From positions 96,001-160,000 of IMG/VR virus record IMGVR_UViG_3300031555_004710: a stretch of DNA of 64,000 bases; one strand, given 5' to 3'. The notes beneath the pieces are model-generated. The model searched no databases and was not told where the DNA came from. It saw nothing but the letters and a program-made list of their open reading frames with translations. The translations under genes were made by a program, and so were the position numbers. Shown piece after piece: positions 1 to 60,861 of this stretch. Positions within the stretch are counted from its first letter, which is position 1, and the number at the start of each line of letters is the position of its first letter. The stretch is from a virus. Lineage: Duplodnaviria > Caudoviricetes.

Positions 1-1476
1 TTCAATGGATGTGTCTATGATATTGTAACTAATCAAACCAAAAAATATAATATATATGATAGTATAGTATTAATCGACATTAATACAAATTTTAAAAAAA
101 TGTATACCATAAGAGAACTAATATTTGCATCATTTTATAGATTTCCTGAAGGTTCAGATATTACGATGACAAACGAGCATACACATGATATTGAATATGC
201 TTATCATATTGAATCTGGGACGGTTGGTTTTTATACTATTTTAGGAGTGGAATTTAGAAAAGTCATAGTACCAAAACATAATAGATATTATAAGGCAGTA
301 ACTAAAAGTAGGAAATTTGTATTAATAGTTTCGGAAAATGGTGCTGTCTATGATATACAAAAGAAACGATTTTTAAATATTAACATTGATGATGATGGGA
401 TTCCTTATATAATACTAAAGCATACTGTAAGGATTACTATTGATGAGATATTATTATATAGCTGGAATGAGCATTTAGAAGTTGACCCAGAACTTTATCA
501 ACTAATAAACACCTCTCCAATAAAATTATTTGTGAATCGACATACATTAGTATTATTCAATGATAAAAGTAATATATATCTACCATTAAACAATGCAGTC
601 GTTTCTCAAAATATTAGCCCATTTATATCTAGCGAAAATCTTCCTCGCTCATTTAAACGTAATAATAGATATTATGATAAATGGTTAATTGATGATTTAG
701 GTAATCTTAGTCAAATACCTATAGATGGACTATCTGAATATTATATATCTAAATGCGGAATAATACTTAATCAAAATAATGCAATACTAAATCCTTATAA
801 GATAATATATAATAATGAAAATATATCAGATGTATTGTATAAATTTCCGAATATCGATAAAGTATTTTCAATTGGTGATATATTAATATGGACATATTTT
901 AGATTAAATTATTCAGCAATTGAAAAATCTTTTATACAATTTACATTTCATAAAAGATTCAATATACCAATAGTATATAATTTACACATAATATCTAAAT
1001 TCTTTCAAATAGGAAATACTACTCCATTAATAGGTGAAATGATATTTACACCAATTAGTGGATTTCCAAATTTCTTCATATCTACAACAGGTGCAATTTT
1101 TAATGCTAAGCATCGATATTTTATTCAGATGCACAATCAATCTAGAGATGACGGGACTACTCATATTCAGTTACCAATAGGAAACGAGTTACGCTGGATA
1201 GATATAAATAAAACAATGTATCGTAGCTGGTATGGTTCGATTCCACATGGAGCCAGAGTTAGCATGAAAAATATGATACGTGGAGATTATAGTTTAGCAA
1301 ATATACAACTAAATATTTCTTCATCAACTAATTGTAATATAAATAAAGTTAGAAAAATTCATGCATCAATTAATAAAAGTAGAGATCGTGAAAGAAAAAT
1401 AATAGAGAGTATTCAATCTATAACAATAGATGAATACTCTAATAAATTTCCTATACCAGAAATAATTGATATTTAA
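1..1476 (+). CDS. Tandem degenerate NUMOD4/HNH-repeat protein (5'-truncated by window edge)
   Basis: Frame is open from base 1 (FNGCVYDI...). Four repeat units: NGCVYD..TIRELIFASF, SENGAVYD..TIDEILLYSW, IPIDGLSEYYISKCG..SIGDILIWTY, ISGFPNFFISTTG..DINKTMYRSWYGSIP..VSMKNMIRGDYSLANI. They resemble NUMOD4 + HNH_3 but lack the catalytic His/Asn. Confidence 0.65.
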   Translation, partial: FNGCVYDIVTNQTKKYNIYDSIVLIDINTNFKKMYTIRELIFASFYRFPEGSDITMTNEHTHDIEYAYHIESGTVGFYTILGVEFRKVIVPKHNRYYKAVTKSRKFVLIVSENGAVYDIQKKRFLNINIDDDGIPYIILKHTVRITIDEILLYSWNEHLEVDPELYQLINTSPIKLFVNRHTLVLFNDKSNIYLPLNNAVVSQNISPFISSENLPRSFKRNNRYYDKWLIDDLGNLSQIPIDGLSEYYISKCGIILNQNNAILNPYKIIYNNENISDVLYKFPNIDKVFSIGDILIWTYFRLNYSAIEKSFIQFTFHKRFNIPIVYNLHIISKFFQIGNTTPLIGEMIFTPISGFPNFFISTTGAIFNAKHRYFIQMHNQSRDDGTTHIQLPIGNELRWIDINKTMYRSWYGSIPHGARVSMKNMIRGDYSLANIQLNISSSTNCNINKVRKIHASINKSRDRERKIIESIQSITIDEYSNKFPIPEIIDI

Positions 1477-1482
1477 AAAGAA

Positions 1483-1512
1483 TGGGATAGCGACTATTTA
1501 TTCGCTATCCCA
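1483..1512. terminator. Intrinsic terminator hairpin (probably bidirectional)
   Basis: tgggatagcga-N8-tcgctatccca immediately after the stop at 1476. Confidence 0.75.
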
Positions 1513-1735
1513 AATATATAGTATATGATTTACTATTCTCCCACCTCAATCAGTTCTATTAACCGTTTTATATTAGTATCTCATAAAGAGATGCTACCCT
1601 GAAATAATTTGAAAATATTACATATCTTTATTTTTTTATATTATACACGAATAGGTCGTGGGGCCTTGATATAGATTTTTCAAATTAATAATTTTAGTAA
1701 ACTGAAATTCTCAAAAAAGAGAGAAAATAAATCAT

Positions 1736-1747
1736 TAATTTAATGTT
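1736..1747 (-). promoter_or_regulatory. Late-type promoter candidate AACA-N6-TA (minus strand)
   Basis: Reverse complement AACAttaaatTA; divergent from the 1779 motif; short motif that can occur by chance. Confidence 0.4.
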
Positions 1748-1778: not shown

Positions 1779-1790
1779 AACATATGAGTA
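1779..1790 (+). promoter_or_regulatory. Late-type promoter AACA-N6-TA upstream of the large structured RNA
   Basis: AACAtatgagTA exactly at the start of the structured, GC-richer segment. Confidence 0.6.
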
Positions 1791-2555
1791 AACCTATCGA
1801 ATAGAAATTCATACTAGGTGTAATGAATGGTATTCGAAGGAGCAGTGAAAAATAGGATAAATGATTATCCTATCGGTTGATTATTCTTACAGGATTTTGA
1901 TAAACATTGAAATATTAATCATAGATGAAACGTGACTGCGATATCGGTTCATAAAAATGAAAAGAGCGTCAAAGCGCGGTATGGGATTAGGGGGGAAGCT
2001 CTCTATGATACAGCGGGTAAGTTTCTGCGTGCAGATGGATCCATGATTGATTAATATTTACAATTTCTATTTTTAATAGTGAGTTGGTTGTTTACTTTTC
2101 GGTAAGGTATGCACAGGAGTATAAACGGCATTAGTGGTAATTGGTGAGATGGAGGTCAACGAGCACCCATCAAATGGAATTGTAAGATAACTAGATTAAA
2201 AATCCTAGTTCTAGATATTTTGACAATGGTTACTATTTTACTATATGTATTATAGAGCGCATTGTTTTAAATTTTATTTAAACAATTTTCAGCCAATTAC
2301 CGCCATAAACGGTAACTCGGTAATTGCTTAGCCTCTAATGCACCCGTTTATTTATTTTTTATTTAATTTAGTAGACATGGTAGGGTACATTATCGGCACT
2401 CTTAGATTTTATAATTTAGTAGAAATATGGTTTCAGTTAAATACAGAAACTATATTTCTTTTTCATGCGTAAAGAATTTATTTCCAACTTGTTTGGAAAT
2501 AAATTATGCGCAAAATGAAAAAGTAAAACATCCTATCATAGATAGGATGTTTTTT
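1790..2555 (+). ncRNA. Candidate large structured non-coding RNA (~760 nt)
   Basis: No ORF >=60 aa; GC-richer than flanks; about 10 local hairpins plus several nested long-range helices; late promoter at the 5' end and terminator at the 3' end. Confidence 0.7.
2525..2555 (+). terminator. Intrinsic terminator
   Basis: aaaacatcctatc-ata-gataggatgtttt followed by a T tract. Confidence 0.8.
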
Positions 2556-2604
2556 CTTATTTTTAATTTATTATAAATATTTTAAATAACCAAATATATA
2601 ATCG

Positions 2605-2642
2605 TATATTATTCTACTGATAATGATATATTATTTTAATGA
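2605..2642 (+). promoter_or_regulatory. Tandem early-type promoters TATATTAT-N5-TGA
   Basis: TATATTATtctacTGA (2605) and TATATTATtttaaTGA (2627) upstream of the RBS of 2682. Confidence 0.7.
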
Positions 2643-11717: not shown

Positions 11718-11789
11718 GTAAGATGACGGGAGTCGAACCCGCAACCTCCGGGAAAGCCCCGGCGCTCTACCACCTGAAGCTACATCTGT
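11718..11789 (-). tRNA. Non-canonical tRNA-like RNA (5-nt anticodon loop GCUUU, Lys-like; no CCA)
   Basis: Reverse complement ACAGATG TA GCTT CAGGTGGTA GAGC G CCGGG GCTTT CCCGG AGGTT GCGGG TTCGACT CCCGT CATCTTA; canonical D and T arms. Confidence 0.7.
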
Positions 11790-60153: not shown

Positions 60154-60357
60154 ATGAAAAGATAAAAGATAGTAGACATTTCTGTCTACTATCTTTTACA
60201 CGATTTAATGATTTAAAAAATAACGGGGTGATACTCATTGATGAGCATTCGACTTATTTTTATGTTATATACGAAAATAAAAAATAACGTATATTCGAGA
60301 TATTTTAATAATGTATTATTTATGTGAATAATAATAAATAACGAGGTGATAAAATGT

Positions 60358-60504
60358 ATGCATTGGCCATTTAATTATCCAGGAGATGAATATAATACAA
60401 ACGTATTTAATCAAGTAATCATCTTATTAGAAGATGTAAAAGATAAGACAATTGAATTTATTGATGAAATTAAGGAGGGAATTAAAAATGATAAGACTAA
60501 TTGA
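60358..60504 (+). CDS. Small early protein (48 aa, not in ORF track)
   Basis: Early motif at 60312, RBS gaggtga; MHWPFNYPGDEYNTNVFNQVIILLEDVKDKTIEFIDEIKEGIKNDKTN. Confidence 0.5.
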   Translation: MHWPFNYPGDEYNTNVFNQVIILLEDVKDKTIEFIDEIKEGIKNDKTN

Positions 60505-60565
60505 CTTAGCTGTAAAAATCTATATTGCATATCTTTTGTATAAACTAGTTAAAAAATATTTATAA
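60488..60565 (+). CDS. 25-aa hydrophobic micropeptide (not in ORF track)
   Basis: RBS aaggaggg; MIRLIDLAVKIYIAYLLYKLVKKYL. Confidence 0.5.
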   Translation: MIRLIDLAVKIYIAYLLYKLVKKYL

Positions 60566-60582
60566 TTTGGGAGGAATTACAA

Positions 60583-60780
60583 ATGAAAAAAAGTATTAAA
60601 GTAGTTGGAAATTTATGTTGGATATTAATGTTTATTATCACCGTTATAATTATATCTTGGGCTATTATAAGTTATTTTAACATTATATTTAGTAACAGAT
60701 CAATCGCTGGAGCTTTTGATAGACTTTGGGATTGGAATCTCTTTAAAGTTCTTGTAAATTTAGGAACACAATTAAATTAA
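60583..60780 (+). CDS. Small membrane protein
   Basis: RBS ggagg; TM helix. Confidence 0.7.
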   Translation: MKKSIKVVGNLCWILMFIITVIIISWAIISYFNIIFSNRSIAGAFDRLWDWNLFKVLVNLGTQLN

Positions 60781-60861
60781 AAGAAAGATGATATCATCTT
60801 TCTTTTTTTTTGTGTATTTTTTAGTTTTCGTTTTGATAATATTATAAAAATATATAAAAAG

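Follow-up and report, generated by a model that had tools for sequence, protein, structure and literature searches.

The stretch of DNA analysed in this study (hereafter the window; 64,000 nucleotides) corresponds to bases 96001-160000 of a virus record in IMG/VR (IMGVR_UViG_3300031555_004710; 236,671 bp, 94% complete). Positions given below are those of the window unless marked as genome positions, which refer to the whole record. Near the left end of the window a gap free of open reading frames (ORFs) extends over 1205 nt (1477-2681), between a gene for a protein of ~500 aa and a gene for a 188-aa protein. This gap houses a divergent pair of predicted transcription units, named RNA-R (plus strand) and RNA-L (minus strand), whose features are collected in Table 1. 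An initial annotation, made from the sequence without database searches, had proposed here a separate non-coding unit with its own late promoter and terminator, and the results agree with that proposal. We are fairly confident from the sequence comparisons below that positions 1790-2559 (+) represent a gene that is transcribed on its own and yields a structured non-coding RNA. It would belong to an undescribed family, known so far only from one small clade of AR9-like jumbo phages, all uncultured.

With an ORF cut-off of at least 70 aa, the gap was the longest of the whole record, in which the intergenic share is 8.7%. It is not the only long one as the initial annotation had it, since further ORF-free gaps of 862, 819 and 658 nt were found. 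The largest ORFs inside it encode 49, 44 and 40 aa, and recoding of TGA to tryptophan or of TAG to glutamine opened no reading frame, so that the RNA-R region is without coding potential under three genetic codes. The higher GC content noticed at first sight was also found by measurement (0.35-0.365 for 1801-2200; flanks, 0.155-0.265; whole genome, 0.297), and the sequence strings cited in the initial annotation were all present where it had placed them.

Table 1 Features of the RNA-R locus and its surroundings (window positions unless marked as genome)
Feature	Position	Strand	Remarks
RNA polymerase beta-like gene, 1419 aa	genome 91502-95761	+	Two genes upstream of RNA-R; phrog_3148, E 1.9e-154
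Upstream gene, 3' part	1-1476	+	Conserved; ~500-aa product; last gene of the operon headed by the RNA polymerase beta gene
RNA-L, putative non-coding RNA	1480-1736	-	~255 nt; own late promoter; 10-bp closing helix between two conserved blocks; two internal hairpins
Bidirectional terminator hairpin (predicted)	1483-1512	both	For the upstream operon (+) and RNA-L (-, with U-run)
Divergent late-type promoter	1736-1747	-	AACA 1747-1744, N6, T1737, inferred start A1736
Late-type promoter of RNA-R	1779-1790	+	AACAtatgagTA: AACA 1779-1782, N6 1783-1788, T1789, A1790
RNA-R, large structured non-coding RNA	1790-2559	+	~770 nt; fold z -9.6; no conserved ORF; syntenic gene-free gap in relatives
5' domain	1910-2058	+	12-bp long-range closing helix (1910-1921 pairs with 2047-2058); lineage-variable
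Core helix P1	2122-2135 with 2334-2351	+	Present in all seven sequences
Core helix P2	2136-2145 with 2292-2301	+	Covariation-supported
Core helix P3	2148-2152 with 2167-2171	+	Covariation-supported
Core helix P4	2176-2183 with 2282-2290	+	Covarying
Core helix P5	2224-2236 with 2252-2264	+	P5a covarying
Long conserved 3' hairpin	2459-2522	+	Base UUUUCAUGCG...CGCAAAAUGAAAA; eight sequences
Intrinsic terminator of RNA-R	2525-2559	+	13-bp stem, 3-nt loop, U-run of six U; hairpin and T-run 2525-2553
Early-type promoter of the 188-aa gene	2604-2619	+	GTATATTAT-N6-G; fits the AR9 early consensus ...TATATTAT-(6N)-G
Downstream gene, 188-aa product	starts 2682		Own early-type promoter, 2604-2619

The ornate RNA foreseen in the initial annotation folds far beyond chance. 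The minimum free energy (MFE) of the plus strand of 1779-2555 was -214 kcal/mol, compared with -160 +/- 5.6 kcal/mol in dinucleotide shuffles (z -9.6), and the minus strand of the same region reached only -173 kcal/mol. Two coding control windows of equal length gave z values of -1.8 and -0.7, and the full RNAs of two relatives, L011 and L012, gave -11.5 and -7.8.

The transcription starts of the Bacillus jumbo phage AR9 have been mapped by differential RNA sequencing (dRNA-seq) and primer extension (Lavysh et al., PMC5312081). In AR9, the late promoter AACA-(6N)-TA/G, of which the last base is the start, is used by the non-virion RNA polymerase, the early promoter AAATATATATTAT-(6N)-G is used by the virion polymerase, and genes that are expressed continuously have both (PMC5312081). 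In the genome studied here, the regions upstream of genes were enriched in the motifs TTTAACA(A/T) and (G)TATATTAT, which agree in form with the late and the early AR9 consensus, respectively. The first motif resolves into TAACA-N6-TAA, all 33 copies of which are intergenic, 25 of them with a same-strand gene start not more than 120 nt away; TATATTAT is found upstream of 28 genes, against 5 expected. The sequence AACAtatgagTA at the head of RNA-R, which had already been picked out as a late-promoter motif, is a copy of this genome-wide motif and equals the AR9 late consensus. It is therefore regarded as a bona fide late-type promoter, from which transcription would start at A1790. The motif is also present in relatives L008, L009, L010, L011 and L035 and, with a shift of one base, in L012. 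The word late here means made by the non-virion polymerase and is not restricted to virion genes; for RNA-R it is the promoter type alone that suggests late expression.

At the other end of RNA-R, the terminator recognised in the initial annotation was found to have a 13-bp stem followed by a T-run, and all relatives retain a hairpin at this site. The early-type promoter block of the downstream gene is conserved in 8/8 relatives. To the left of the RNA-R promoter lies a plus-strand block, TTAnnnnnnTGTT, which is the reverse complement of the divergent late-type promoter and is found in 7/7 sequences, the two AACA elements being 22-38 bp apart in these seven.

For comparative analysis, 23 homologues of the 188-aa protein were collected from ENA and Logan assemblies. 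Seven of the contigs (L008-L013 and L035) span the whole locus and encode 188-aa proteins that are 63-72% identical. Their common gene order is a ~1420-aa polymerase beta-like gene (where the contig reaches that far), a gene for a protein of ~500-557 aa, a gap of 1.2-1.7 kb in which no gene was called, and the 188-aa gene; the promoter pair of the gap is retained as well. By blastn, the 3' hairpin was the sole part of the window RNA resembling these relatives, and despite the silence of blastn elsewhere, MAFFT aligned conserved blocks along the whole gap. Many metagenomic contigs of related phages (L014-L018 and L036-L039) stop 150-520 nt before the 188-aa gene and so contain only the 3' end of RNA-R; assemblies evidently tend to break here.

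Searches further afield gave nothing comparable. Nothing was found by blastn of the region against INPHARED phages, nothing real by tblastn of the neighbouring protein, and no real homologue by protein-guided scans of IMG/VR and the JGI metagenomes. A conserved 16-mer searched in IMG/VR and a conserved 19-mer searched in JGI metagenomes and GTDB genomes hit 13, 92 and 46 loci, respectively; judged by nhmmer and by the presence or absence of the other hairpin arm, all of these were chance matches. In a distant clade (L019-L021; neighbouring protein 43% identical), the minus-strand late promoter is kept, and the plus-strand promoter and the core of RNA-R are both absent. The covariance models of RNA-R (R1, described below, and R2) had no match in the distant 255-kb phage G001 or in the other gene-free gaps of the genome, so that no paralogue was found in these gaps, and R2 had none in Listeria phage LPJP1 beside its polymerase gene. 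LPJP1 itself has an unannotated gap of ~1050 nt directly upstream of its RNA polymerase beta-like gene (MZ422438.1 75618-76670; L189:2835-3887).

Evidence for a conserved RNA structure came from a core at 2122-2351. Single-sequence folds of the relatives had a common layout. Five helices were assigned by hand, and covariance model R1 was built from six relatives without the window. With filters off, R1 matched the window at 2116-2323, on the plus strand only, with 68.9 bits (E 1.8e-15), and its next-best match within 6 kb scored 9.5 bits. Because the window sequence had no part in the model, this match tests homology and structure independently. In the alignment of seven sequences, 90% of the cells of the core helices hold standard pairs, compared with 28-46% in slid controls, in which the partners were displaced by 1-3 columns. 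Both bases have changed in 20/36 pairs, against 1-6 in the slid controls, and the core scores 0.44 for covariation, the controls no more than 0.11; none of 500 shuffles attained the pairing or covariation values of the core. Homologues with compensatory base changes, which the initial annotation had named as a check, exist in related jumbo phages. Three of the helices that it had drawn were recovered with covariation support, namely aacgg-cattag with ctaatg..ccgtt (P1), ggtaattgg with ccaattacc (P2) and gatgg with ccatc at 2148-2171 (P3).

Among the unpaired bases of the core, hardly any variation was seen in UGAG (after P2), RUCA (P3 loop), AAAYG (after P3), GUGA/GAGCG (within P5) and AUGCCGUC (3' strand of P1). 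A tertiary contact between GUCA of the P3 loop and UGAC of the P5 internal loop was considered and rejected, as it shows no covariation and L009 has AUCA with UGAC unchanged. An insert of ~32 nt (2302-2333) between P2 and P1 occurs in the window sequence alone. In the window only, GGTAATTG is doubled (2137-2144 and 2318-2325), by which the 3' strand of P2, CCAATTACC (2293-2301), gains a second possible partner in the insert; this could be an alternative fold or a mere scar of duplication.

The 3' hairpin provides a second line of evidence, obtained with a plain MAFFT alignment of eight sequences. Here 84.9% of the cells are paired, compared with 37-56% in slid controls, and 12/22 pairs carry double changes (such as AAC/GUU or CAC/GUG in place of CAU/AUG), which gives covariation support to the long stem at 2459-2522 of the initial annotation. 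The base of the hairpin is conserved in sequence, which suggests a possible recognition site. A second hairpin follows it in every relative and forms a full terminator in the window. Both the core and the 3' hairpin are kept by compensatory changes while the primary sequence drifts beyond the reach of blastn, and selection acts on the base pairs.

The 5' half is more variable. The 12-bp helix closing the 5' domain, which the initial annotation had drawn between ~1910 and ~2048, occurs in both the MFE and the centroid structures and has an analogous closing helix in relatives, and is plausible on these grounds. The same holds for the hairpins at 1797-1837, 1852-1873, 2189-2210 and 2421-2459, which are part of the MFE structure and have hairpins at the same places in relatives. 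L008-L011 and L035 have a 5' domain of their own, made of a closing long-range helix, two hairpins and GGRGAGAAA, with double changes in 10/26 pairs among ~four independent sequences; the interior of the window domain resembles L013 alone (AGAGC...GGGGAAGCUCU). Four pairings of the initial annotation had to be given up. The hairpin attgttt/aaacaat is in competition with two covarying helices, P4 and P5a, and ttaccg/cggtaa would take up bases of the 3' strand of P2. Of gagtaaac, drawn as pairing with gtttactt, half (1786-1789) precedes the putative start A1790. The pseudoknot tcttaca/tgtaaga has no support in relatives and overlaps P4.

Taken on the sequence evidence, RNA-R is very probably a real RNA gene. 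Several points weigh against the reading of it as a conserved, independently transcribed late RNA. The alignment used for the pair counts of the core was fitted to the model, which favours pairing, though the margin over the controls is large. The core was found in seven sequences only, of which about six are independent. The eighth sequence, L013, was detected by neither R1 nor R2; as it retains the 3' hairpin, the UAUGCCAUGUCGG motif and P2/P3-like helices, it is treated as a divergent relative and not counted as evidence. The late motif TAACA-N6-TAA also stands before the genes of a DnaB-like helicase and of NrdD, which leaves strictly late timing unproven. Finally, the U-tract of the terminal hairpin is poor in several relatives (L009-L011 lack a clean U-run), and read-through into the following genes is possible there.

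Such read-through is also what would be needed if RNA-R were no separate RNA but the structured 5' leader, of unusual length, of a late mRNA that continues into the 188-aa gene and its operon, giving these early genes a second, regulated late mode of expression. The early-type promoter before that gene would fit a leader as well, given that early and late promoters are combined at the continuously expressed genes of AR9 (PMC5312081). Nevertheless, a leader is improbable. The terminator of the window is strong and every relative has a hairpin there, 330-560 nt separate the core from the gene, no complementarity between the core and the ribosome-binding site of this gene was noted, and a conserved multi-domain fold of ~770 nt far exceeds the needs of known leaders.

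A relationship to known RNA families was examined next to this. The initial annotation had placed the RNA either with the large phage RNAs ROOL and GOLLD or in a new class, and only the second part of this agrees with the searches. When all 4227 families of Rfam 15 were compared with the window, nothing beyond terminator-like chance matches was obtained. Neither at the gathering threshold nor at E<=10 in 1450-2700 was there a match to GOLLD, ROOL, OLE, RNase P, transfer-messenger RNA (tmRNA), 6S, HEARO or introns; six of the relatives had no Rfam match at E<=1, ARAGORN found no tmRNA, and full-text literature searches on AR9-like phages brought up no RNA of this kind.

By these comparisons RNA-R is most like GOLLD and ROOL in kind and a member of neither. 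Like GOLLD (RF01998), it is large (~770 nt, against ~800 nt), phage-borne (GOLLD occurs in phages and prophages) and heavily branched, with a conserved 3' part and a variable 5' part. Unlike GOLLD, it gives no match to the model at E<=10, and it belongs to an AR9-like jumbo phage and has a phage-polymerase promoter. GOLLD often lies beside tRNA islands; RNA-R has no adjacent tRNA, and the nearest tRNA-like match is ~9 kb away. That match was called by Rfam at 11721-11787 (-) with 34.4 bits and is absent from the ARAGORN list, which contains only tRNA-Pro and tRNA-Gln (genome 211849-212007). ROOL (RF03087) is likewise a large ornate RNA, of Bacillota phages and prophages, with no known protein partner, but RNA-R does not match its model, has another helix layout and lacks the tRNA-island context. 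GOLLD and ROOL form RNA-only homo-oligomeric cages, a 14-mer and an 8-mer, respectively (PMC12286853). A likeness to 6S RNA (RF00013) is one of functional analogy only, in that RNA-R has a stable structure to which a multisubunit RNA polymerase could bind; apart from lacking an Rfam match, it is multi-branched, ~4x longer and without a rod with a central bubble. With the late units of AR9 it shares the promoter form AACA-N6-TA/G, companion early promoters of the form TATATTAT-N6-G and the presence of multisubunit polymerase genes. The main text of the AR9 paper describes no non-coding RNA gene, whereas here late promoters are predicted to drive both RNA-R and RNA-L.

The richness of AR9-like phages in group I introns and HNH endonucleases, together with a weak HNH-like match of the upstream gene and a sub-threshold match to RF00028 elsewhere in the genome, could suggest that RNA-R descends from a self-splicing intron and is now a ribozyme, either degenerate or free-standing. 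This is very improbable, as no match to Intron_gpI or group II introns was obtained at E<=10 in the search of the 1.25-kb region or at E<=1 in the six relatives, the flanking genes are intact, RNA-R has its own promoter and terminator, and the covarying helices of the core are nested around a multi-helix junction and show nothing of the P3-P7 pseudoknot order. The RF00028 match (genome 183151-183403; L181:72-324) scores 36.4 bits against a gathering threshold of 50 (E 1.3e-6), lies in a 483-nt gene-free gap and is probably an intron in a phage gene; the search that left RNA-R without a group I match was thus able to pick up this one. A gene-free gap at ~219.5 kb of the genome had no group I match in the Rfam scan at E<=0.1.

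Whether selection acts on RNA or on DNA can be read from the non-Watson-Crick cells of the helices. Read on the plus strand, the core has 29 G-U cells and 3 A-C cells, and the 3' hairpin has 10 and 2. Because G-U exceeds A-C in this reading, selection acts on the plus-strand transcript and not on a DNA duplex or cruciform, and the strand concerned agrees with the direction of the promoter. A DNA-level element such as an origin had been raised as an alternative in the initial annotation. An element of this type, either a replication origin activated by the promoters or a protein-binding array, with the hairpins as cruciforms or sites, would suit the longest non-coding region of the record, with its divergent promoters and many inverted repeats, within ~6 kb of the GC-skew minimum and of a switch in gene orientation, but it is the least probable of the explanations considered, since DNA hairpins or duplex sites would not favour G-U on one strand, pairing is kept despite poor conservation of the primary sequence, the GC content is above that of the flanks where an origin would be AT-rich, and a more AT-rich gap lies nearer the minimum. 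Cumulative GC skew tracks gene orientation in this genome and reaches its minimum some 6 kb left of the RNA-R gap (genome ~88-92 kb). The 819-nt gap (genome 86764-87582; GC 0.20) adjoins this minimum and the orientation switch at ~88-92 kb and folds moderately above shuffles (z -3.8 and -4.6); it is a better candidate for the origin than the RNA-R locus.

The divergent promoter at 1747-1736 would drive a second non-coding RNA, RNA-L, which is conserved in the seven sequences. RNAalifold together with pair counts gave 85% paired cells, compared with 35-47% in slid controls; the minus-strand reading has 25 G-U and 5 A-C cells, the fold has a z value of -3.8, and no minus-strand ORF of at least 20 aa lies inside. 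The terminator hairpin at 1483-1512 covaries in relatives.

Copies of TAACA-N6-TAA without a gene start within 120 nt were also found elsewhere, at window 60267 (-) and at genome 33082 (+), 33158 (+), 68274 (+), 87519 (-) and 202976 (-). Most of them lie in or beside long gene-free gaps (window 60288-60861; genome 86764-87582, 202342-202999 and 68203-68611), none of which matched Rfam, and these gaps may contain further non-coding units. A separate observation concerns more than 25 coding repeats of the form ...GCTACAAATTTACCATCACCATAACATA..., ~120-130 nt apart in large genes at genome ~60.4-61.9, 167.2-172.4 and 177.8-179.7 kb, which indicate a repeated protein module of ~40 residues.

Among the neighbouring genes, the ~500-aa protein upstream is 29% identical to its counterpart in L009; it has no Pfam match, and PHROG gives a weak HNH match alone. 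It contains several repeats of short motifs (window 1-1476; L009:1139-2686), such as VSENGAVYDI and ISTTGAIFNAK, which we take to recall NUMOD4-type motifs of phage homing endonucleases. The operon adjoining RNA-R is headed by the beta gene of a virion-type RNA polymerase, the 1419-aa gene, whose late promoter (genome 91454) is as would be expected for a subunit of a virion-packaged polymerase. Another ORF of the genome, of 897 aa, matches PF00562. Judged from these protein matches, the genome encodes the multisubunit RNA polymerases of jumbo phages, with a presumptive assignment of the 897-aa and 1419-aa proteins to the virion or non-virion enzyme. Among cultured phages, those nearest by the polymerase protein (~30% identity) are of the AR9/PBS1 type and infect Listeria, Staphylococcus and Bacillus. 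The proximity of RNA-R to a polymerase gene is a lead, not proof of an interaction.

Putting these data together, the phage non-virion multisubunit RNA polymerase would transcribe RNA-R from A1790 in the late phase, and the product would act in trans as a folded object and not by antisense pairing. Binding or assembly may take place at the core junction, where unpaired bases are invariant, and at the sequence-conserved base of the 3' hairpin, with the variable 5' half as peripheral decoration. Since RNA-R combines a compact junction and a conserved hairpin base with freely varying peripheral stems, the preferred interpretation is an architectural or protein-binding RNA (a ribonucleoprotein, RNP, or a self-assembling scaffold) made alongside virion components. 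We lean towards a folded scaffold or RNP acting in trans as the role of RNA-R, and any particular partner that might be named for it is unlikely. More specific proposals are improbable, namely that RNA-R is a late-made partner of the transcription or packaging machinery, or that it is a self-assembling RNA like ROOL or GOLLD, in either case together with RNA-L. As an example of the former, a decoy or chaperone would hold the new virion RNA polymerase inactive until it is packaged. Mimicry of polymerase sites was considered in this connection, and no early- or late-promoter-like sequence was found to be conserved within RNA-R.

Large RNAs with an intricate fold are still few in bacteria and phages, and new biology has come from them time and again; the cages of GOLLD and ROOL exceed the ribosome in size, and RNA-R would be a further, unrelated family. 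It offers clear ends and a compact conserved core of ~230 nt for structural work, as well as a promoter of a type for which the enzyme and the start site are biochemically defined in AR9. If RNA-R is indeed a partner of the phage machinery or forms a cage-like assembly, it would represent a new functional class of large viral RNA. More generally, the pair of RNA-R and RNA-L suggests that AR9-like gut phages possess a substantial layer of non-coding RNA that annotation pipelines have missed.

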